Below, piece by piece: positions 11,593-64,000 of a stretch of 64,000 nt of DNA. The DNA is from Escherichia coli (lineage in GTDB: Bacteria > Pseudomonadota > Gammaproteobacteria > Enterobacterales > Enterobacteriaceae), in assembly GCF_003334335.1 (NCBI RefSeq), contig NZ_QOWQ01000013.1. One strand, given 5' to 3'. How positions within the stretch are numbered: the first letter of the stretch is position 1; every line of letters begins with the position of its first letter. A program made the translations under genes and the position numbers. Under the pieces are notes generated by a model. The model did not search any database, was not told the DNA's origin, and worked only from the letters and a program-made list of their open reading frames with translations.

Positions 11593-11630
11593 GAAAAAAA
11601 AGCCCGCACTGTCAGGTGCGGGCTTTTTTC
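11593..11630 (-). terminator. thr attenuator (leader terminator)
   Basis: minus-strand AGCCCGCACCTGACAGTGCGGGCT hairpin followed by T8 between thrL and thrA. Confidence 0.85.
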
Positions 11631-11647
11631 TGTGTTTCCTGTACGCG

Positions 11648-11716
<69 letters not shown>

Positions 11717-19795: not shown

Positions 19796-20320
<525 letters not shown>

Positions 20321-20324
20321 GCGC

Positions 20325-20465
20325 CTGATGCGACGCTGCCGCGTCTTATCATGCCTACCAAACATATTGAAATTACGGGTATTTGTAGGACGGATAAGGC
20401 GTTCACGCCGCATCCGGCATTCGGTGCACGATGCCTGATGCGCCACGTCTTATCAGGCCAACAAA
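20325..20465. repeat. REP/BIME palindromic repeats
   Basis: gcctgatgcgacgc...cgtcttatcatgcctac and ggataaggcgttcacgccgcatccggca REP motifs. Confidence 0.6.
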
Positions 20466-20466
20466 A

Positions 20467-20808
<342 letters not shown>

Positions 20809-20840
20809 TTAGCGGGGGAAGCAAAATGCCTCCCCCGGTT

Positions 20841-20858
20841 GTACTCGCTAAAGAGTAC
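20841..20858. promoter_or_regulatory. TrpR operator in trpR promoter (autoregulation)
   Basis: palindrome GTACTCGCTAAAGAGTAC about 50 bp upstream of trpR start. Confidence 0.6.
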
Positions 20859-20882
20859 GATAGCATATCATAAACGGGCGGA

Positions 20883-22820
20883 TCAGTAACGACGTCCCCA
20901 TTCCGTGGCGCTCATCAACGTCGGTTTATCCCCCATGAAATAGCGGTAGTAAGCGTCATAAGCCAGCACGTTCTTTACATAACCACGCGTCTCGGAGAAC
21001 GGAATACTCTCGACAAATGCCACTGCGTCGATACGCCCGGCGCTGTTGCCAAGCCAGGTTCGCACCCGCCCTGGTCCGGCGTTATAAGCTGCTGAGGAGA
21101 AAATACGGTTATTGCCAAACTGCTGATAAACATATTGCAGATAACTGGTGCCAATGTTGATATTCGTTTCCGGATCCAGCAATTGCCCAGGGCTGCTATA
21201 ACCAGGAATAGAGAACATCTTCACCGTATGGGTCGCTGTACCAGGCATAATCTGCATCAGGCCGCTGGCCCCTACCGGTGATTTCACTTTCGGATTCCAG
21301 GCGCTCTCCTGACGGGCAATCGCCATCGCATAGCTTTGCGGGATCTCTTTCCCACTGGTGTAACGTTTGAAAAGATCGTTGTAAGCCAGCGGGAATCGCT
21401 CTTCCAGATGATCCCAAAGCTTCCCGGCGATCGTTGCCTGAACGCTAAGATCCCACCATTGGTTATTGAAAGCATACCGAGCCAGTTGAGCCTGCTCTGT
21501 TTTTGACTTGCTCTTCACCAGATTGGCCCACTCGCTACGCGCGGTGTTATCGAGATTCCAGTACATCAACTCGCGCACGCGCGCCATCTCCGGCCCCTGA
21601 GTCAGGGCGCTGTCAACATTCTGCGGCGCTTTATCAATCTTCAGCTCATACTCTTCTCCGATGCGTTGTGCTGCAACCATCGGGTAGAAACCACGCTGTT
21701 GCATGAGTTGATGCAAAATCTCTTTCGCTTCAGCTTCACGTCCGCGTTCCAGCAATAAATCCGCCTGCCAGTAACGCCATTCATCTTTCTCTTTTGCTTC
21801 CATCGGCAGACGCGCCAGCCAGGTATTCAGGCCGCGACGATCGCCGGTGCCAAGTGCCATTCGCACACGGCGTTCAATCAACGACGTGGATTGCGAGCGC
21901 ATAATGGCGTCATCGCGCCATTTCGCCTGCTCGTCGGTGACATCGTTGCCCATCAAACGCCAGGCGACGATATCGCGCAGCTCCTGAATCTGATCTTCAT
22001 TAAGCTGCTGCGCCTGGGCAAGCGACGGGATCATCAGCCGTGCATTTTCAGCATCCTGCCGCGCCACACTGGCAAACGCCACCGCTGCCATTTGACGGGT
22101 AAAATCGGTCGCTCCGGTTGTACGCGCGAAGGTCAGTACCGTATTAGGGTTGTTCGCCAGTGAAATGATTGCCGAGGCGATAGTCTGGTAATCGGCAGGC
22201 ATCTGCCCTGCCAGCACTGTTACCAGGCCAGTGTTACCCGCTTTCATCGCCAGACGGATACGCTCTAAATACGCCAGCGGATCTTGTTTACCTGACGCAC
22301 GCCAGACGCTAAATAACTTGTCACAGGCGTTAGGCTGGCTCTTGCCGGTTAGCCACAGCTCTTTCGCCCCTTGCCAGGCTTCTTCACTCTGCCCGGTGTT
22401 CCATTTCGCATAGTAGTAATTACATTGCGCTTCGGTAGTTCCGGGCTTTTCCGGGCTAAAGGCTAACAAGCCACGCCAGTCTTCACGCCGCGCCAGTTCA
22501 TTGACGAAACGAGATTGCAGCGTGCGAGCGGGAGGAAGCGTGGGGTTAGCGCGAACAAAGTTAGTGACCGTCACCGCCGGTTGATTCATCAGATCATCGG
22601 TGATCTGGCGGTATTCCAGGTAGGGATAAAGCGGATAATCCTTCAGTCCAGGCATCATTTGTTCGACCACATCCATTTGTCGATTATCCCAGGCCTGCTT
22701 GATTTGCGCGTAACGGCTACGCTGCTCATCCAGTGAGTCGGCTCGCGCCACGCTGCTGACCATCAGCAGACAGACACCGGCAGCCAACAGCCGCCAGGTA
22801 ACTTGTTTGGCTTTTTCCAC
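20883..22820 (-). CDS. slt: soluble lytic murein transglycosylase Slt70
   Basis: ORF 20883..22850; K-12-like N-terminus (M)EKAKQVTWRLLAAGVCLL corresponds to a GTG codon here; upstream in-frame ATG at 22850 is an alternative start. Confidence 0.9.
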   Translation of the reverse strand: MEKAKQVTWRLLAAGVCLLMVSSVARADSLDEQRSRYAQIKQAWDNRQMDVVEQMMPGLKDYPLYPYLEYRQITDDLMNQPAVTVTNFVRANPTLPPARTLQSRFVNELARREDWRGLLAFSPEKPGTTEAQCNYYYAKWNTGQSEEAWQGAKELWLTGKSQPNACDKLFSVWRASGKQDPLAYLERIRLAMKAGNTGLVTVLAGQMPADYQTIASAIISLANNPNTVLTFARTTGATDFTRQMAAVAFASVARQDAENARLMIPSLAQAQQLNEDQIQELRDIVAWRLMGNDVTDEQAKWRDDAIMRSQSTSLIERRVRMALGTGDRRGLNTWLARLPMEAKEKDEWRYWQADLLLERGREAEAKEILHQLMQQRGFYPMVAAQRIGEEYELKIDKAPQNVDSALTQGPEMARVRELMYWNLDNTARSEWANLVKSKSKTEQAQLARYAFNNQWWDLSVQATIAGKLWDHLEERFPLAYNDLFKRYTSGKEIPQSYAMAIARQESAWNPKVKSPVGASGLMQIMPGTATHTVKMFSIPGYSSPGQLLDPETNINIGTSYLQYVYQQFGNNRIFSSAAYNAGPGRVRTWLGNSAGRIDAVAFVESIPFSETRGYVKNVLAYDAYYRYFMGDKPTLMSATEWGRRY

Positions 22821-23030
22821 AAGCGCATCCTCTAAGTGTAAATACATCAATGCAGCGTCATGCCGCGTAATAGATTTATGCTAACCAGTCATTGCCGTTT
22901 ACGCCACGTTACGGACACTTTTTTACTTTTACTGCGAAGGTGATCGACCAACTGGGATTAGGCGGGGAAAAAGGCTACACTTCGCCTTTGAAAACTCATC
23001 ATCACGATAAACATAGAGGCGAAGTCCAAC

Positions 23031-24698
23031 GTGGCTCAATTCGTTTATACCATGCATCGTGTCGGCAAAGTTGTTCCGCCGAAACGTCATATTTTGAAAA
23101 ACATCTCTCTGAGTTTCTTCCCTGGGGCAAAAATTGGTGTCCTGGGTCTGAACGGCGCGGGTAAGTCTACCCTGCTGCGCATTATGGCGGGCATTGATAA
23201 AGACATCGAAGGTGAAGCGCGTCCGCAGCCAGACATCAAGATTGGTTACCTGCCGCAGGAACCGCAGCTGAACCCGGAACACACCGTGCGTGAGTCCATT
23301 GAAGAAGCGGTTTCTGAAGTGGTTAACGCCCTGAAACGCCTGGATGAAGTGTATGCGCTGTACGCCGATCCGGATGCCGATTTTGACAAGCTGGCCGCTG
23401 AACAAGGCCGTCTGGAAGAGATCATTCAGGCTCACGACGGTCATAACCTGAACGTACAGCTGGAGCGTGCGGCGGATGCGCTACGTCTGCCGGACTGGGA
23501 CGCGAAAATCGCTAACCTCTCCGGTGGTGAGCGTCGTCGCGTAGCGTTGTGCCGCCTGCTGCTGGAAAAACCAGACATGCTGCTGCTCGACGAACCGACC
23601 AACCACCTGGATGCCGAATCCGTGGCCTGGCTGGAACGCTTCCTGCACGACTTCGAGGGCACCGTGGTGGCGATTACCCACGACCGTTACTTCCTCGATA
23701 ACGTTGCGGGCTGGATCCTCGAACTGGACCGCGGTGAAGGTATTCCGTGGGAAGGTAACTACTCCTCCTGGCTGGAGCAGAAAGATCAGCGCCTGGCGCA
23801 GGAAGCTTCACAAGAAGCGGCGCGTCGTAAGTCGATCGAGAAAGAGCTGGAGTGGGTACGTCAGGGAACTAAAGGCCGTCAGTCGAAAGGTAAAGCACGT
23901 CTGGCACGCTTTGAAGAACTAAACAGCACCGAATATCAGAAACGTAACGAAACCAACGAACTGTTTATTCCACCTGGACCACGTCTGGGCGACAAAGTGC
24001 TGGAAGTCAGCAACCTGAGTAAATCCTATGGCGATCGCCTGCTGATTGATGACCTGAGCTTCTCGATCCCGAAAGGGGCGATCGTCGGGATCATCGGTCC
24101 GAACGGCGCGGGTAAATCGACCCTGTTCCGTATGATCTCCGGTCAGGAACAGCCGGACAGCGGCACCATCACTTTGGGTGAAACGGTGAAACTGGCGTCG
24201 GTTGATCAGTTCCGTGACTCAATGGATAACAGCAAAACCGTTTGGGAAGAAGTTTCCGGCGGGCTGGATATCATGAAGATTGGCAACACCGAGATGCCAA
24301 GCCGCGCTTACGTTGGCCGCTTTAACTTTAAAGGGGTTGATCAGGGTAAACGTGTTGGTGAACTTTCCGGTGGTGAGCGCGGTCGTCTGCATCTGGCGAA
24401 GCTGCTGCAGGTTGGCGGCAACATGCTGCTGCTCGACGAACCAACCAACGACCTGGATATCGAAACCCTGCGCGCGCTGGAAAACGCCCTGCTGGAGTTC
24501 CCGGGCTGCGCGATGGTTATCTCGCACGACCGTTGGTTCCTCGACCGTATCGCCACGCACATTCTGGACTACCAGGATGAAGGTAAAGTTGAGTTCTTCG
24601 AAGGTAACTTTACCGAGTACGAAGAGTACAAAAAACGCACGCTGGGCGCAGACGCGCTGGAGCCGAAGCGTATCAAGTACAAGCGTATTGCGAAGTAA
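23031..24698 (+). CDS. ettA: energy-dependent translational throttle ABC-F protein EttA
   Basis: 555-aa ORF with two ABC ATPase domains (GLNGAGKST, GPNGAGKST Walker A; two LSGGE signatures). Confidence 0.95.
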   Translation: MAQFVYTMHRVGKVVPPKRHILKNISLSFFPGAKIGVLGLNGAGKSTLLRIMAGIDKDIEGEARPQPDIKIGYLPQEPQLNPEHTVRESIEEAVSEVVNALKRLDEVYALYADPDADFDKLAAEQGRLEEIIQAHDGHNLNVQLERAADALRLPDWDAKIANLSGGERRRVALCRLLLEKPDMLLLDEPTNHLDAESVAWLERFLHDFEGTVVAITHDRYFLDNVAGWILELDRGEGIPWEGNYSSWLEQKDQRLAQEASQEAARRKSIEKELEWVRQGTKGRQSKGKARLARFEELNSTEYQKRNETNELFIPPGPRLGDKVLEVSNLSKSYGDRLLIDDLSFSIPKGAIVGIIGPNGAGKSTLFRMISGQEQPDSGTITLGETVKLASVDQFRDSMDNSKTVWEEVSGGLDIMKIGNTEMPSRAYVGRFNFKGVDQGKRVGELSGGERGRLHLAKLLQVGGNMLLLDEPTNDLDIETLRALENALLEFPGCAMVISHDRWFLDRIATHILDYQDEGKVEFFEGNFTEYEEYKKRTLGADALEPKRIKYKRIAK

Positions 24699-24699
24699 T

Positions 24700-24865
24700 G
24701 CGTAAAATGCCGGATGCGGCGCGAACGCCTTATCCGGCCTACAAAACCAGCAATTTCAATACGTTGTAAAACTGTAGGCCTGATAAGACGCGGTAAGCGT
24801 CGCATCAGGCATTGAGCACCGAATGCCGGATACGGCGTGAACGCCTTTTCCGGCCTACAACAGCC
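24700..24865. repeat. REP/BIME palindromic repeats
   Basis: repeated gccggatgcggcg...cttatccggcctaca and taggcctgataagacgcg motifs. Confidence 0.6.
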
Positions 24866-25005
24866 TTAGTATCCGCAATTTCGTAGCGGGTCACCCGTGC
24901 TGATTCTTTTAAACCTTGTTTAATCTCGACAGCCTCTTCCAGAGAGGTTTTCAACTCATCAAAAAAACTCATTTTATACCTCGCCTTTGAGCAGTTTCGT
25001 CACGG

Positions 25006-26238
25006 TTACCTCTGCTCCCCCATCATCTCCCGCACCAGCTCCACGCAGCGCAGGAAACGGCTGTCATAATCGTCCTCTTCAACCCGCACGAATTCGATAT
25101 TGTTCTCTTCCAGCATCTCCACCAGCAAGTTCTGGAACTCTTTGCGATCCACCGAACTGCCGAGGCTGCGTAAACCATCCGCCACCCACGGCGTGTTGTT
25201 CTCCAGCAGGATCACCAGATCGAAACGGTATTCATCAATCAACGCCTGCACGAACGGATGCTCACGCCCTTCGTACTTTTTGCAGAACGCCTGGGTAGTG
25301 ACAAAATCAGTGTCAATAAACGCCACTTTATTGGCGTATTTCACTGCAAAATCAATGTATTGAGCGTGGCCCAGCGCGATTTTATCGTAGTCGGAATACT
25401 GCAATGCGATCTCATCACCGCCGAGGTGTGAAAAGACATAATCGCGACCATATTCCCACGCACTGGTGGTATTGAAGATATTGGCAAGTTTGTTTACCAG
25501 GGTGGATTTACCGCTCGACTCGCCGCCAAGGATCGCCACGGTACGCACAAAGAACGGCTTCACTTCCGTAGGAATATATTCCCAGTAGCGGAACGGGTTT
25601 TCGCGGATCTGCGCACCGCTGATACTCATAAAGGTACGCTTCGGATCGACCAGCACCGTCTCGATCCCCAGATGTTCCATATACTGTGGCGCATCGGCTT
25701 CTTCCGAGGTGTAGATCAGGTCCGGCTGGATCCCCTTTTCAGCCATAAACTTTTTGATGCCGTTGCTCCACACATCCCAGCCGTGCGGATATGGCTCCAT
25801 GCCCTCTTCGTTGAAAGCATGAATGCGAATATTTTTCTGATATTTAAAGGTTTGCAATAACCAGCGCAGACGATCCGGCACCGTGGGCTGCTGCGACATG
25901 GCGCTGTCTTCAAACAACGCGCGGTCGCGGGTATCGTCAAAGCCCATAATGATATGCAGCTCGTCAACCTGGCTACAGGCGCGCTGGATAAGGTAGATAT
26001 GTCCGGTATGCAGCGGGTAGAACTTACCGAATACCACACCGATGGTTTTCTTCTGCCGGGGAAATTCAAGCCCCAAAAAACGGTGCAATGCCTCCAGCTT
26101 TTGTGCGCTGGGGCTTTTAATTTTGGCATTCAGTAACTGGCTTAAATACCCTTTGGTCATACCGCTGGCATCAGCGACCTGCTGTAGCGTGCAGCCCTGT
26201 TGCTTGATGGCAGTTTTCAGGTAATCAAATGACGACAT
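25006..26238 (-). CDS. nadR: trifunctional NAD biosynthesis/regulator protein NadR
   Basis: ORF 25006..26259 trimmed to MSSFDYLKTAIKQQGCTLQQVADASGMTKGYLSQLL (410 aa). Confidence 0.95.
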   Translation of the reverse strand: MSSFDYLKTAIKQQGCTLQQVADASGMTKGYLSQLLNAKIKSPSAQKLEALHRFLGLEFPRQKKTIGVVFGKFYPLHTGHIYLIQRACSQVDELHIIMGFDDTRDRALFEDSAMSQQPTVPDRLRWLLQTFKYQKNIRIHAFNEEGMEPYPHGWDVWSNGIKKFMAEKGIQPDLIYTSEEADAPQYMEHLGIETVLVDPKRTFMSISGAQIRENPFRYWEYIPTEVKPFFVRTVAILGGESSGKSTLVNKLANIFNTTSAWEYGRDYVFSHLGGDEIALQYSDYDKIALGHAQYIDFAVKYANKVAFIDTDFVTTQAFCKKYEGREHPFVQALIDEYRFDLVILLENNTPWVADGLRSLGSSVDRKEFQNLLVEMLEENNIEFVRVEEDDYDSRFLRCVELVREMMGEQR

Positions 26239-37830: not shown

Positions 37831-39128
<1,298 letters not shown>

Positions 39129-45959: not shown

Positions 45960-46135
<176 letters not shown>

Positions 46136-46244: not shown

Positions 46245-46331
46245 GCGAAGGTGGCGGAATTGGTAGACGCGCTAGCTTCAGGTGTTAGTGTCCTTACGGA
46301 CGTGGGGGTTCAAGTCCCCCCCCTCGCACCA
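46245..46331 (+). tRNA. leuQ: tRNA-Leu (anticodon CAG)
   Basis: 87-nt GCGAAGGTGGCGGAATTGGTAGACGCGCTAGCTTCAGGTG...CCTCGCACCA; long variable arm; genomically encoded CCA; single copy. Confidence 0.95.
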
Positions 46332-59099: not shown

Positions 59100-60764
59100 T
59101 TAAAACGTTTCCCAGTTCTCCCCGCTATCTGCCACGGCCATTTTACGCGGCGCAGCTGGCGTCACGGTTTTTACCACAGCCGATGTTTCACGCTGCTGTT
59201 GCTGCTGTTGCTGAATCCGGAACACTGCCACAGCTTCGGTCAGGCGACTGGCCTGCTCTTCCAGCGCGGCGGCGGCAGCGGCAGATTCTTCCACCAGCGC
59301 AGCGTTCTGTTGGGTTACTCTGTCCATCTCAGCGACCGCTAAGCCAACCTGATCGATACCACGGCTCTGCTCATCAGAAGCCGAAGCAATTTCGCCCATA
59401 ATGTCCGTCACGCGGGTCACGGCACTGACAATCTCCGCCATTGTTTCCCCTGCGCTTTCGACCAGCGTAGAGCCAACATCTACTTTCCCCACCGAGTCTT
59501 CAATCAGGCTTTTAATTTCACGAGCCGCCTGAGCGCTGCGCTGGGCCAGATTACGCACTTCACCCGCGACCACCGCAAAACCGCGCCCTTGCTCACCCGC
59601 GCGCGCTGCTTCAACCGCCGCGTTCAAAGCGAGAATATTGGTCTGGAAGGCAATGCCGTCAATTACGCTGATAATATCGGCGATTTTCTGCGAACTGGTG
59701 GAGATATCGCGCATGGTCTGCACCACGTTATCCACCACTTTGCCGCCGCGTTGCGCCGTTTCAGAAGCACTTAACGCCAGGTGGCTGGCCTGGCGCGCAT
59801 TTTCGGCGTTCTGCTTCACCGTTGCGGTCAGTTGCTCCATGCTGGCTGCCGTCTCTTCCAGCGAAGCGGCCTGTTGCTCGGTGCGCGAAGAGAGATCGTT
59901 ATTGCCGGTAGCGATTTCGCTGGCACCGCTATAGATGGCATTGGCCCCGTTGCGCACATCACCGACGGTACGCATCAGCTCTCCCTGCATATGGCGCAAA
60001 CTCTCAGCCAGTTGCCCCATCTCATTAGAGCCATCCACCTCAATCGGTTTCACCAGATCGCCGCCTGCAATATGACGAATGCTGTCAATCAGGCGATTCA
60101 TTGGCGCTACCAACGAGGCTTTAATACCGAACCAGACGGCGAAGATGACCGCCAGTACGACGATCATCACGCCCACCAGAATCCACATCGCCTGGCTGTA
60201 GGAGGCATTATTATCGCTGACGGCGATATCATAGAGCCGATCGTTTTGCTCCATGTAAGCCACATACTGCTTCTCGAAACCGTCCTGATATCCCTGGGTC
60301 GGCTGATCAAAGAACTCGTTGATTTTGCCTGCACCTAACAGTTGGATCAGCTCCGCCAGCGCATTGTGATAAATATCGTAATTACGTTTGATCTCTGCCG
60401 CTGCGGCGGTGCTCTGACGCGGGTCACGCGGCAACGCTTCGTAATCCGCCCAGTTTTTTTCCGCCTGTTTCAGCGAAATACTGGCACTCTGCATCAGCTC
60501 AGCAACGGTTGAACCGCTACCAATATTATTCTGATCCATCATGTAGCGGATACCCGCGCGGTTGAGGGTGTTACGCGTCTGCAACAACGCGACCCAGCTG
60601 CCATTCAGCGTGGATTGCTGCTGGCGAATGGTTTGTAAAACAGTGAAATTTTCTTTGTCATTCTTTAAGGCATTAAAGAACAGACCGCCTGATGTCAGTT
60701 GTAAAAGGCCAAAAACGGCCAAAACCAGCAGTAAGCTGGTCACGATCTTGATACGTTTTAACAT
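59100..60764 (-). CDS. tsr: methyl-accepting chemotaxis protein I (serine receptor) Tsr
   Basis: ORF trimmed to [21 protein letters not shown]...; C-terminus NWETF; 7-Gln run [13 protein letters not shown]. Confidence 0.95.
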
Positions 60765-60795
60765 GGTTTCTCTTTCCACTAGACAGATACACTGG

Positions 60796-60822
60796 TTGTC
60801 GGCCTGGTGGTGGAAAACTTTA
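60796..60822 (-). promoter_or_regulatory. sigma-28 (FliA) promoter of tsr
   Basis: minus-strand TAAAGTTT-N11-GCCGACAA matching the TAAAGTTT-N11-GCCGATAA consensus, about 30 bp upstream of tsr start. Confidence 0.55.
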
Positions 60823-60903
60823 TGCTGTGGAAAAGCGTCGGCACTGCTTTTGTTGCAGCAAACTTGCGTTTTTTGTGAGGGTCACACTCTATAGCGGCAG
60901 TTT

Positions 60904-61809
60904 ATGGTACAAAGTATCAATCTTCTTCGAACCAGTGATACTCCTATGGCTTATAGCATCGATATCATCTCCTGCATTACCGAACGGTTTATGGCGTTAA
61001 CAGCCACTGAAAAGCGTATCGCACAATTTATTCTTGATGACGTCTCTGCCGCAGTAGAGTTGCCAATTGCTGAGCTGGCACGGTTAACGCAAACCAGTCA
61101 GGCGTCGGTGACGCGTTTTGCCCGTGCACTGGGGTGCAAAGATGTCCGCGAGTTGAAAGTCAAACTGGCGCAGTCACTGGCTGTCGGGCAGCGGTTTATT
61201 CTCGATGTACCGGATCTTGACGGTGTTCAGGGGATCTACGAAGCGATTATTAGCGTGCTGGAGACGCATCGTCGTTCGCTGGATATGAATGCCATCAGCC
61301 AGGCTGTAAGCTGGTTAAGTCAGGCGCGGCAAATTCTTGCGTTAGGAACTGGCGGCGGTTCCACTATCTGTTCACAGGAGATTCAGTACCGTTTATTCCG
61401 TCTGGGGCTACCGGTGGTCAGTCAGAATGATGCCCTGATGATGAGAATGATGTGCTCGGCAGTCATGCCGCAGGATGTGGTGATTGTGCTTTCGCTGGGC
61501 GGTTATACACCGGAAATCATCGAAAGTGCGGCAATCGCCCGTCAGTATGGCGCGCGTGTTATTGCCATTACGCCAGCACAAACACCGCTGGCGGAACAGG
61601 TGGATCTGGTATTGCCGTTACTGGTTCAGGAAAGTGATTACATCTTTAAGCCCACCCCTTCCCGCTACGCGATGTTAGCCATGGTCGATGTACTGGCAAC
61701 AGAACTGGCAATGGCAAATAAAGCGCAGGCGAAAGATCGCCTGCGGCGGATAAAACTCGTGTTAGACAGCCACCGTGGGGGCGCTAACCGCCAGCCACTT
61801 GGCGATTAG
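60904..61809 (+). CDS. RpiR/MurR-family transcriptional regulator (HTH plus SIS domain)
   Basis: 301-aa ORF with N-terminal HTH (LTATEKRIAQFILDD...IAELARLTQTSQASVTRFARALG) and SIS-like core; true start may be an internal Met. Confidence 0.8.
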   Translation: MVQSINLLRTSDTPMAYSIDIISCITERFMALTATEKRIAQFILDDVSAAVELPIAELARLTQTSQASVTRFARALGCKDVRELKVKLAQSLAVGQRFILDVPDLDGVQGIYEAIISVLETHRRSLDMNAISQAVSWLSQARQILALGTGGGSTICSQEIQYRLFRLGLPVVSQNDALMMRMMCSAVMPQDVVIVLSLGGYTPEIIESAAIARQYGARVIAITPAQTPLAEQVDLVLPLLVQESDYIFKPTPSRYAMLAMVDVLATELAMANKAQAKDRLRRIKLVLDSHRGGANRQPLGD

Positions 61810-61818
61810 CATTGTCGG

Positions 61819-63288
61819 TTATGCTTCTTCAGGTTTGGTGATCACGACACTCTGGTTTTCACGCTCATTGGTGATAATAGCCAAAGCTTCTTCCCGGCTG
61901 ACCTGACTTGCTGGCGTTACCAACGTCACCAGTACGCCAGCGACCAGGCTGCCCAGCACTGACGGAATACACGGGTTACCCCAGTAAGCCAGCCAGTCGG
62001 CATTCATCAGCACCACAATTGACATCACCATACCGCTCACTAACGCCGCCAGCGCGCCCTGCCAGTTAAAGCGTAGCCAGAAGCGACCGAGAATCGAGCA
62101 GATAAACAGCCCGGACATCAGCATCGAAATCATTTTGGTAATGTAGCTGATGATGTCATTAGAGGTCAGAGCAAAGACCAGCGCCAGGCCAATAACAAAG
62201 GTCAACATCCAGCGTGAGTAAGTAATGGCCTTGTCCTCCGGCGGCATTCTGCCGGTAATCATGGTGTAGACGTCGCGCATCATAATCGCCACCGCCGCGA
62301 TGGCATCGGAGCTGGCAGAAGACATGGTGGCTGAAAGCCCGGCAATCAGCACCACCAGCCCAAGAATGGCAGGTAAGAAACTGGTCGCGAACAAGAAGGC
62401 GTAGTTGCTGTTTTCCAGATTTGGGTTCATGGTGAACGCCGCCATGCCGATAATGGCAGGCAAAATCGAGAAGAACAGATATAACACCCCAGTAATAACA
62501 AACGAACGGCGTACAGAGGGAACATCTTTACCCGAGTAAATACGCTGGCGATAAGACGGTGTGGCCAGTACGCCGACACCAATAACCAGCGCCAGCGAAA
62601 GCGCAGGTAGAACGCCCATTTTATCAATCGCAAACAGGCTCATCGCTTTTGGGTCCATCGCCTGTTCAATCGCACTCCAGCCGCCAACGTGAACAACGGC
62701 GAGAATAGCCATCAATATAAAGCCAAAGAACAGAATTAAGGCCTGAATGGTGTCTGTCCACACTACCGCCGAATAACCGCCGATAATAACGTAAATCGCA
62801 AAAGCTAAGGCGATAATTAATTTTGCTACAGTAAGATCAATACCTGTTGCCCAGGCAAGATACATACTGCCACCTAATATATGCGCCCCCAGCCAGCCAA
62901 TAGAGGCAATAAATATCATCAGGCCGACAATATTTTTAATTAAATGACTCCCGCCAGTATAATAAGATATTTCTTCACTCATGGTCATAAAACGTAATTT
63001 ACGTACCGGTGCAAACAGCCACGCCACCAGTAATATACCTACGGCCCCACCGACGCCATAAAGCATTCCGGCCCAGCCATTGCTGTAGCCAAAGCCCACG
63101 GCGCCCATACTGGAACCCGTGCCAACCATCGTGGCAACGGTTGAGCCCAGCGTCAGAAACAGCGGCAACGAACGCCCGCCCAGCAGAAAATCTTCTCCGC
63201 TTTTCTGATTACGAGACACAAACCAACCAAGCCAAATCATGGCGATGGCATAAATAATAAAGCCGACTAAAAAGATATGACTGTTCAT
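61819..63288 (-). CDS. sodium:solute symporter (SSS) family transporter
   Basis: 489-aa polytopic membrane ORF with SSS-like architecture; substrate unknown. Confidence 0.8.
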   Translation of the reverse strand: MNSHIFLVGFIIYAIAMIWLGWFVSRNQKSGEDFLLGGRSLPLFLTLGSTVATMVGTGSSMGAVGFGYSNGWAGMLYGVGGAVGILLVAWLFAPVRKLRFMTMSEEISYYTGGSHLIKNIVGLMIFIASIGWLGAHILGGSMYLAWATGIDLTVAKLIIALAFAIYVIIGGYSAVVWTDTIQALILFFGFILMAILAVVHVGGWSAIEQAMDPKAMSLFAIDKMGVLPALSLALVIGVGVLATPSYRQRIYSGKDVPSVRRSFVITGVLYLFFSILPAIIGMAAFTMNPNLENSNYAFLFATSFLPAILGLVVLIAGLSATMSSASSDAIAAVAIMMRDVYTMITGRMPPEDKAITYSRWMLTFVIGLALVFALTSNDIISYITKMISMLMSGLFICSILGRFWLRFNWQGALAALVSGMVMSIVVLMNADWLAYWGNPCIPSVLGSLVAGVLVTLVTPASQVSREEALAIITNERENQSVVITKPEEA

Positions 63289-63390
63289 AATTCACATCCT
63301 GCCAGTAGAGAGAGAATAAAGTAAGAGTTCCCGGAGTGCTGAATGTATTCAGCACTCAATTGCGGTCTATTTTTTTAATTCTTAAATTTA

Positions 63391-63786
63391 TTAGCGGGTC
63401 GCGTTATAACAGGTCACATCGACTTCAACTTTACAATCGACAACCAGATCAGCTACACAACAAATACGTGCAGGCGGATTCTCGCCAAAAAATTCTCTGA
63501 ATACTTTATTAAATGACTGGAAATAGCGGGCGTCGGTCAGGATCACTTTCACGTGAACCACATCCGCCAGGCTATAACCGGCTTCAGTCATGATGTCGAC
63601 ACAGTTTTGGATCGCCAGTCGTGACTGTTCAACGATACCGCCTTCTACCACTTCACCGTTTTTCATGGGGGTTTGCCCGGAGACGTACAGCCAGCCGCCC
63701 GCCTCAACCGCCCTGGCAAACGGCAAATGCTGCCCGCCAGTGCCTGTTCCACCTTCCGTACCGTAACGTTTAATACTCATATTCAC
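63391..63786 (-). CDS. RidA/YjgF-family reactive-intermediate deaminase
   Basis: 131-aa ORF with typical RidA/L-PSP fold sequence. Confidence 0.85.
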   Translation of the reverse strand: MNMSIKRYGTEGGTGTGGQHLPFARAVEAGGWLYVSGQTPMKNGEVVEGGIVEQSRLAIQNCVDIMTEAGYSLADVVHVKVILTDARYFQSFNKVFREFFGENPPARICCVADLVVDCKVEVDVTCYNATR

Positions 63787-63789
63787 TCC

Positions 63790-64000
63790 TTAATGTGAGG
63801 TCTGGCGGCGCAGGAAGCGTCCCGCACGGCCTGTAATGTGTTTATCGCGACCATAGCTCATAACGCCGTTCACCATCACCGCCTCAATGCCATCTGCCGG
63901 GCGTTTGGGATCAGAAAAGCTGGCAACATCACGAATGGTTTGTGGATCGAACAACACCAGGTCCGCAAAATAGCCGACTTTCACCAGCCCACGCTGAGGC
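63790..64000 (-). CDS. amidohydrolase (D-aminoacylase-like), C-terminal fragment; gene continues beyond window
   Basis: C-terminal 64 aa ...ADLVLFDPQTIRDVASFSDPKRPADGIEAVMVNGVMSYGRDKHITGRAGRFLRR resembles N-acyl-D-amino-acid deacylase C-termini. Confidence 0.6.
   Translation of the reverse strand, partial: PQRGLVKVGYFADLVLFDPQTIRDVASFSDPKRPADGIEAVMVNGVMSYGRDKHITGRAGRFLRRQTSH

Follow-up and report, generated by a model that had tools for sequence, protein, structure and literature searches.

Which pathway is encoded by the genes that, in some strains of Escherichia coli, stand between the serine chemoreceptor gene tsr and its K-12 neighbour btsT (= yjiY)? The question is raised by a 64,000-nucleotide (nt) stretch of E. 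coli DNA (contig NZ_QOWQ01000013.1, assembly GCF_003334335.1), the whole of which is referred to here as the window. At its right end, tsr is followed by a MurR/RpiR-family regulator gene, a sodium:solute symporter (SSS) gene, a RidA-family gene and the 3' end of an amidohydrolase gene. A first-pass annotation, made from the sequence alone, had named these open reading frames (ORFs) and had noted that yjiY flanks tsr in K-12. All of the ORFs were recovered under names that agreed with NCBIfam, and in K-12 MG1655 the two genes are indeed direct neighbours, with a 377-bp spacer. The operon had also been taken to be cut by the window edge, and extension past position 64000 yielded the rest of the amidohydrolase gene and a divergent gene for a 406-residue pyridoxal phosphate (PLP)-dependent "amino acid deaminase", followed by btsT, yjiX and yjiA. 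The sequence past the edge was read from the copy in E. coli 2014C-3075 (locus L001), whose chromosome is 100% identical to the window over 60780-64000 (3.2 kb). Very probably, the five genes represent the ong cluster in its E. coli form and serve the catabolism of a C1-oxidised N-acetylhexosamine. The outcome is mainly an annotation fix: the genes would be assigned to the published ong pathway for oxidised amino sugars, as its cytoplasmic module.

The ong pathway of Pseudoalteromonas prydzensis ACAM 620 serves oxidative chitin utilisation and degrades N-acetylglucosaminic acid (GlcNAc1A), which arises from oxidative chitin cleavage (Jiang et al. 2022, PMC9537276). In P. prydzensis, the SSS transporter OngIT is essential and specific for GlcNAc1A uptake, the D-aminoacylase-like OngB, with which the enzymatic steps begin, deacetylates GlcNAc1A, and the fold-type III PLP enzyme OngC converts the OngB product to 2-keto-3-deoxygluconate (KDG) and ammonia, after which KDG is phosphorylated by KdgK (PMC9537276). 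The RpiR-family protein OngR represses the ong genes, and the RidA protein OngD is genetically essential, with a biochemical role that was left open by the authors (PMC9537276). The structure of OngB is available for PpOngB (Wang et al. 2025, PMC12017989). As the reference cluster we used that of Pseudoalteromonas sp. ZZD1, which was found by a protein search and contig look-up and whose OngB shares 92% identity with PpOngB, the crystallised enzyme.

Each of the five E. coli proteins aligned over its full length with its Pseudoalteromonas sp. ZZD1 counterpart, at 44% identity for OngR, 58% for OngIT, 84% for OngD, 54% for OngB and 45% for OngC. The regulator gene ongR (60946-61809, plus strand) probably encodes a repressor; HTH_6 and SIS Pfam domains are recorded for its homologues, and its full-length NCBIfam matches to the HexR, RpiR and AlsR models all fall under the equivalog cut-offs, leaving it without a named equivalog. 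The symporter gene ongIT (61819-63288, minus strand) encodes 489 residues that match the SSS superfamily model TIGR00813, and the stop codons of ongR and ongIT face each other across 9 bp (61810-61818). The RidA-family gene ongD (63391-63780, minus strand; ORF to 63786) encodes a protein in which the P-A-R arginine motif aligns with canonical RidA/YjgF/TdcF. Its TIGR00004 score of 82 lies below the cut-off of 106, which makes it a member of the Rid family and not of the housekeeping RidA subfamily. About 70 codons at the 3' end of ongB lie within the window (63790-64000, minus strand); the remainder is outside it, and the E. coli 2014C-3075 copy (L001 23011-24453) encodes 480 residues. The operon order is ongB-ongD-ongIT, and the fifth, divergent gene is ongC, the product of which contains the Ala_racemase_N and D-ser_dehydrat domains.

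The best PDB matches of E. coli OngB were KleDacyl of Klebsiella pneumoniae (9G5M, 84% identity) and PpOngB (9KB1/9KB3, 54%), ahead of the true D-aminoacylases. The alignment with PpOngB is gap-free over 473 residues, and 17 of the 18 published functional residues of PpOngB are identical in the E. coli protein, including the metal ligands (Cys/His/His), the catalytic Asp, and the binders of the acetamido, carboxylate and hydroxyl groups. The conserved binders of the sugar hydroxyls are Ser284-Ser285-Ser286, Gln292 and Glu220 in E. coli numbering, the latter two corresponding to Gln298 and Glu226 of PpOngB. This Ser-Ser-Ser/Gln/Glu set separates sugar-acid deacetylases from D-aminoacylases. The D-aminoacylases AfDam and BbDam are inactive on GlcNAc1A, and PpOngB is inactive on N-acetyl-D-amino acids (PMC12017989). 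The side-chain pocket of true D-aminoacylases is hydrophobic or basic, whereas that of E. coli OngB is small and polar. The D-aminoacylase pocket residues Phe191, Met254, Leu298 and Met346, and a Thr at the position of PpOngB Ser292, are absent from E. coli OngB, which has Ala187, Ala250, Gln292, Asn342 and Ser286 instead.

The presence of the cluster in E. coli is itself on record. In Supplementary Data 3 of Jiang et al., ongC, ongR, ongB, ongD and ongIT are recorded for 13 strains of E. coli, for E. fergusonii and for an Escherichia sp., and lpmo, ongOT-1, kdgK and ongA are marked absent (PMC9537276). The locus-tag order agrees with that of the island in the window. The identity of the cluster had therefore already been recorded, by homology only. 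The novelty implied by the first-pass annotation did not survive the homology search, which led to a known annotated pathway published in 2022, an outcome that the annotation itself had named as refuting. Its suggestion that an N-acyl-D-amino acid or an amino sugar derivative is taken up and deacylated fared better, since it matches the homologous GlcNAc1A pathway; GlcNAc1A falls under both descriptions, N-acetyl-D-amino acid and amino-sugar derivative.

Several observations weigh against the assignment. The regulator, the RidA protein and the amidohydrolase score under the NCBIfam cut-off of every named equivalog or subfamily, and neither a kinase nor an aldolase gene is part of the E. coli island. 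The sole cavity residue that differs is Asn342 in E. coli OngB, which is Gly348 in PpOngB. The nearest characterised enzyme, KleDacyl, was assayed on N-acetyl amino acids only (PMC12149444). A literature search found no experimental work on the cluster in E. coli or any enteric bacterium, and nothing relevant on E. coli and GlcNAc1A.

The pathway that we infer for E. coli would begin with the import of a free N-acetyl-hexosaminic acid by OngIT. OngB, a predicted mononuclear-metal amidohydrolase with a D-aminoacylase fold, would strip the acetyl group to give a 2-amino-2-deoxy-hexonate, from which OngC would eliminate the 3-hydroxyl and the amino group to yield a 2-keto-3-deoxy-hexonate and ammonia. 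OngD may assist after OngC by speeding the hydrolysis of the enamine/imine. That RidA quenches such a product had been proposed in the first-pass annotation, and the essentiality of OngD in the homologous system is in its favour, although the biochemical role is conjectural even there; the likely source of the enamine/imine, OngC, lies beyond the window and was thus invisible to that reading. Core enzymes encoded elsewhere, KdgK/Eda for a gluco product or DgoK/DgoA for a galacto product, would then lead to pyruvate and glyceraldehyde-3-phosphate. Among 5426 complete E. coli genomes, kdgK is present in 5422 and dgoKA in 5021, and E. coli can be expected to handle either product. OngR is predicted to keep the genes repressed by way of TGGTAC-N3-GTACCA-type sites, and repression would end once its SIS domain is occupied by the substrate or a derivative of it. 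According to the annotation of the 2014C-3075 locus, neither a KDG kinase nor OngA, OngOT or a lytic polysaccharide monooxygenase (LPMO) is encoded by the island or by the ~20 kb that flank it on each side. Because E. coli has no counterpart of the outer-membrane receptor, periplasmic hexosaminidase and LPMO of the marine system, it would scavenge the monomer that other organisms set free or that chemical or enzymatic oxidation releases.

A candidate operator for OngR was found upstream of its gene. The palindrome TGGTACAAAGTATCA (60905-60919; consensus TGGTAC-AAA-GTACCA) came to light only through cross-species alignment, in which it was invariant across 10-11 enterobacterial loci (10-11 genera) within DNA that is otherwise unalignable. 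In the window this 15-bp element, TGGTACAAAGTAYCA, sits 26 bp upstream of the ATG at 60946, which is likewise conserved in 10-11 enterobacterial genera, and sequence further upstream does not align. The regulator ORF had been started at ATG 60904 in the first-pass annotation. The ORF is present, but because that ATG falls within the conserved palindrome and the ATG at 60946 is conserved, the likelier start is 60946, giving 287 residues as in RefSeq. The half-site AAAGTATCA occurs in two copies only in 43 kb of L001, and the second copy (L001 24544-24552) lies within an invariant block of the ongB-ongC divergent spacer. We propose that the palindrome is the OngR operator, mediating autoregulation, and that OngR may control both promoters; the conserved element would provide a ready handle on OngR regulation.

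Other searches for regulatory elements gave little. A first operator guess, TGAATAAAAGTATCA, taken from the ongB-ongC spacer, had 5 matches in the window with 3 mismatches allowed, against 1.3 expected; it was dropped as uninformative, with no match in the tsr-ongR or ongIT-ongD spacers and its sole island match over the ongD start. A sigma-70 promoter scan of 60700-64000 gave 4 promoter-like sequences against 3.4 +/- 1.8 expected, which is chance level, and a terminator scan of the same interval gave 7 against 3.9 +/- 2.0 in shuffled sequences, within two standard deviations; neither was used. A repeat search paired the first codons of tsr, ATGTTAAAACGTATCAA (60748-60764), with the palindrome (60904-60920) over 17 nt at 82% complementarity. 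This pairing was regarded as chance because the tsr arm is coding sequence that is nearly identical in K-12 (one mismatch in 17 nt).

The arrangement of the cluster was compared across other bacteria in a scan of a species-level genome collection, of which the best 80 loci were considered; none of these was from Pseudoalteromonas. Fifteen Enterobacterales loci share the arrangement C / B-D-IT(-kinase-aldolase) / R, and Vibrio, too, has the five ong genes. At the ongIT/ongR junction, two extra genes for a DgoK-family kinase and a DgoA-like aldolase are found in Citrobacter, Klebsiella-type, Leclercia, Cedecea, Rahnella and Buttiauxella clusters, and not in E. coli. A kinase and an aldolase in the sister operons point to a 2-keto-3-deoxy-hexonate as the end product, and not to an amino-acid-derived keto acid.

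Variants of the cluster were also seen. A 92%-identical homologue of KleDacyl lies in an ong-type operon on a Klebsiella-type contig (L088 1458-7248), in the order deaminase / deacetylase-RidA-SSS-DgoK-like-aldolase / RpiR. An exact-sequence look-up of KleDacyl gave no match, and its genomic context was accordingly read from this homologue and a second, 86%-identical one. Enterobacter sp. Ag1 (L011), Cedecea neteri (L013) and Enterobacteriaceae RIT693 (L024) have ongC / ongB-ongD / ongR only, with no SSS transporter, kinase or aldolase between ongD and ongR; since the SSS gene is missing from these clusters, uptake would be encoded elsewhere or the module further reduced. In many Pseudomonas (L015 7667-11946 and ~50 loci among L016-L082), a gene for an OngB-like protein follows genes for a GntP-family permease and an RpiR regulator. 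These OngB-like proteins are 62-64% identical and have Gly at the position of residue 342, and within 10 kb neither OngC nor OngD had a detectable homologue. A chemoreceptor gene lies beside the L015 locus. The Pseudomonas loci represent a different, uncharacterised wiring of the same deacetylase.

Within E. coli, the island was present in 195 of the 5426 complete genomes (~3.6%, about 1 in 28), always on the chromosome and at 97.8-100% identity, in isolates from humans, poultry, pigs, cattle, wild birds and water. The Citrobacter freundii cluster occupies exactly the interval from btsT to tsr-lgoT, and its genes are 81-95% identical to those of E. coli, similar to the flanking core genes (86-95%). 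The cluster adjoins tsr-lgoT in Leclercia and lgoT-lgoR on a Klebsiella-type contig. On the simplest reading, this is an ancestral locus that was probably lost by most E. coli, including K-12, and in E. coli the two extra genes were deleted as well, leaving the 9 bp between the stop codons of ongIT and ongR. A horizontally transferred island was considered and rejected, as no integrase, insertion sequence or tRNA features are annotated and no direct repeats were found at the borders; the GC content of 45-54% is close to that of the flanks, and the cluster stands at the same locus in C. freundii and beside tsr-lgoT in Leclercia.

The nearest characterised relative of E. coli OngB suggests a different substrate. 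KleDacyl (PDB 9G5M/9GV8) was published in 2025 as a "D-acylase", an N-acetyl-D-amino-acid deacylase for biocatalysis, and stereospecific hydrolysis was shown for N-acetyl-D-Met, -Phe, -Trp and -aminobutyrate; GlcNAc1A and genomic context go unmentioned in the paper (PMC12149444). The island could accordingly be a cluster for the utilisation of N-acyl-D-amino acids, in which a D-acylase frees a D-amino acid (e.g. D-Ser, D-Thr or D-Met) that is turned into a keto acid by the PLP deaminase, with RidA quenching 2-aminoacrylate-type intermediates. True D-aminoacylases are the next-best PDB matches of OngB, and P. prydzensis OngC also deaminates D-Ser and D-Thr in vitro (PMC9537276). The activity of KleDacyl on N-acetyl-D-amino acids is very weak, however, with a Km of 32 mM and a kcat/Km of 2.8 min-1 mM-1 (~47 M-1 s-1) on N-acetyl-D-Met, and with ranges of 19-32 mM (>50 mM for N-acetyl-D,L-Trp) and 1.5-2.8 min-1 mM-1 over its substrates (PMC12149444). 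The value for N-acetyl-D-Met is ~30-fold below that of PpOngB on GlcNAc1A, 1.6 mM-1 s-1 (PMC12017989). PpOngB and two homologues had no detectable D-aminoacylase activity (PMC12017989), and the hydrophobic pocket is replaced in E. coli OngB as it is in the sugar-acid deacetylases. The active-site and cavity residues of KleDacyl, including Gln292 and Asn342, are identical to those of E. coli OngB. The regulator is of the RpiR type that senses sugars and sugar acids, and the 2-keto-3-deoxy-hexonate kinase and aldolase of the sister operons would have no role in D-amino-acid catabolism. Given the weak kinetics, the missing pocket, the inactivity of PpOngB-type enzymes as D-aminoacylases and the sister kinase and aldolase genes, D-acylase activity is regarded as a side reaction, and D-amino-acid utilisation as the purpose of the cluster is very unlikely; KleDacyl was probably characterised on non-physiological substrates, and its published assignment is probably not the physiological one. 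A second alternative is that the island has no present function in E. coli and is the decaying rest of an ancestral cluster of seven genes that has already lost its kinase and aldolase, with complete loss, as in K-12, to follow. The small share of complete genomes that keep it (195/5426) would fit such decay, as would the lack of the two additional genes that C. freundii has at this locus and of an oligomer uptake system or LPMO in the island or ~20 kb to each side in L001. Yet all five genes are intact in every row inspected, across alleles spanning 97.8-100% identity, and the most divergent allele inspected has the same tsr-btsT site and the same five intact genes. Two E. coli alleles differ by 104 synonymous and 12 non-synonymous changes (pS 0.07-0.09; pN/pS 0-0.10), the operator-like palindrome is preserved, and the downstream enzymes are provided by core genes. 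These results indicate long residence under purifying selection, not decay, and we regard the remnant explanation as very improbable.

Within the ong assignment, a further question is which epimer is degraded. The enteric and Burkholderiales branch, including the E. coli island and KleDacyl, might act on N-acetyl-D-galactosaminic acid (C1-oxidised N-acetylgalactosamine) and not on chitin-derived GlcNAc1A; the product would be 2-keto-3-deoxy-D-galactonate, destined for DgoK/DgoA-type enzymes, and OngB residue 342 would be the epimer switch. This is a refinement nested in the ong explanation and not a contradiction of it. Ten of the 15 Enterobacterales clusters carry a DgoK/DgoA-type pair between ongIT and ongR, and not a KdgK/Eda-type pair; these ten include the cluster of C. 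freundii, which shares the E. coli locus, and the Klebsiella-type one with the close homologue of KleDacyl. The operon kinase belongs to the DGOK family (PF05035, E = 4e-90) and is 50-54% identical to E. coli DgoK; the aldolase is 66-71% identical to E. coli DgoA and scores 302 against a cut-off of 207 with NF006600, the model of the 2-keto-3-deoxy-6-phosphogalactonate (KDPGal) aldolase. The same pair stands beside the cluster in 6 Paraburkholderia loci, and no galactonate dehydratase or DgoT gene was found near the clusters that bear DgoK/DgoA. KdgK is found instead in the clusters of Vibrio, Andreprevotia and Pseudomonas entomophila, and Eda too in the two Vibrio loci. By the determinants of stereoselectivity described for the KDPGal and 2-keto-3-deoxy-6-phosphogluconate (KDPG) aldolases (PMC4915726), 16/16 cluster-linked DgoA-like proteins are of the KDPGal type (Ala-Ile in strand beta-1, Val154) and the Vibrio cluster aldolases of the KDPG type (Pro-Val, Thr161). 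When 83 OngB proteins were aligned, a single column of the 480 told two groups apart: at residue 342, the 23 enteric and Burkholderiales sequences all have Asn, and the remaining 60 have Gly or Cys. Residue 342 co-varies with the kinase type, and the Asn342 group does not form one clade in a neighbour-joining tree, although such a tree is crude. In the KleDacyl crystal, Asn342 touches a bound glycerol along with Glu220 and Lys248.

Other evidence speaks against the galacto reading. All other sugar-contacting residues of OngB are unchanged, including Glu220, which in PpOngB binds the C4 hydroxyl of GlcNAc1A, and some Klebsiella strains with the same cluster type carry an LPMO, which would yield the gluco acid. 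E. coli itself lost the DgoK/DgoA paralogues of the cluster, paralogues can shift in specificity, and a literature search found no natural source or catabolic pathway of galactosaminic acid. The kinase and aldolase types, the stereo-determinants and residue 342 suggest that the branch that includes E. coli yields 2-keto-3-deoxy-galactonate, and its substrate may be N-acetyl-D-galactosaminic acid, perhaps in addition to GlcNAc1A. We put the galacto epimer forward tentatively, as a possibility somewhat short of an even chance. New with respect to the published ong work are the DgoK/DgoA-type genes of the enteric clusters and the division of OngB between Asn and Gly/Cys. If true, the proposal would add a new sugar-acid nutrient for Enterobacteriaceae and an easily testable one-residue specificity switch, and could point to the use of oxidised mucin-type sugars by gut bacteria, a pathway and a nutrient that are both undescribed.

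The borders of the island were placed by alignment of the K-12 spacer with both ends. The five-gene segment, ~5.9 kb in length, stands where K-12 has ~100 bp of the tsr-btsT spacer; its in-window part is 60826-64000, and the whole corresponds to L001 ~20047-25900, with the right end near window-equivalent 66680. The core gene tsr (59100-60764, minus strand), annotated as such in the identical region of E. coli 2014C-3075, flanks the island at the left and is outside the pathway. Its promoter, TAAAGTTT-N11-GCCGACAA (60796-60822, minus strand), which we take to be sigma-28-type from the FliA promoter consensus, is kept despite the island, and the K-12 and island sequences part from ~60826; the left boundary was therefore set at ~60826, just upstream of the tsr promoter. 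At the right border, similarity to K-12 returns at a CRP-site-like TGTGA-N6-TCACA element upstream of btsT, and the deaminase gene ends with a hairpin and a T-run. The tsr gene itself is 1665 nt long in the window and in 2014C-3075, whereas K-12 and strain WL297 have 1656 nt; the Tsr protein of the window has seven consecutive glutamines close to its C-terminus, a likely site of this 9-nt length polymorphism.

Outside the island region, the window is 97.5-98.7% identical to L001 and thus comes from a different strain. The threonine operon leader at 11593-11712 places the conventional start of the K-12 map within the window. A single tRNA-Leu(CAG) gene lies at 46245-46331, where E. coli 2014C-3075 has three tandem copies (L001 5233-5554), presumably the leuQPV locus of K-12; the reduction of the array to one unit in the alignment may be a real deletion or an assembly collapse. 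Rfam matches comprised five tandem naRNA4 (REP325-type, nucleoid-associated RNA) elements at 37869-38353 and isolated copies at 24777-24855 and 46023-46105, one of which is just upstream of the single tRNA-Leu gene.

The island can be set beside other known systems. The D-glucosaminate pathway of Salmonella (dgaABCDEF) also converts an amino-sugar acid to a 2-keto-3-deoxy-hexonate phosphate and ammonia, by way of a mannose-family phosphotransferase system (PTS) and a different ammonia-lyase that acts on the 6-phosphate. The annotation shows no PTS genes within the island or beside it, a comparison that was made by annotation and not by sequence against the dga proteins, and a PTS route of the Salmonella type was set aside on this ground. 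The dgoRKADT and KdgK/Eda genes of E. coli encode the probable downstream steps, from 2-keto-3-deoxy-hexonate through its 6-phosphate to pyruvate and glyceraldehyde-3-phosphate. These genes lie outside the E. coli island, and their regulators are DgoR and KdgR instead of OngR; the sister clusters include DgoK and DgoA paralogues. The five core functions of the P. prydzensis ong cluster are all represented in the island by full-length homologues, in a different gene order: C / B-D-IT / R in E. coli, and C-R-B-D and IT-K-A in the marine cluster. The TonB-dependent receptor (OngOT), the glycoside hydrolase family 20 hexosaminidase (OngA), the kinase and the LPMO of the marine system are not in the E. 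coli island. These parts are accessory to the full chitin pathway and not to the cytoplasmic GlcNAc1A module, and the E. coli island, unlike the marine ong cluster, is a monomer-only module.

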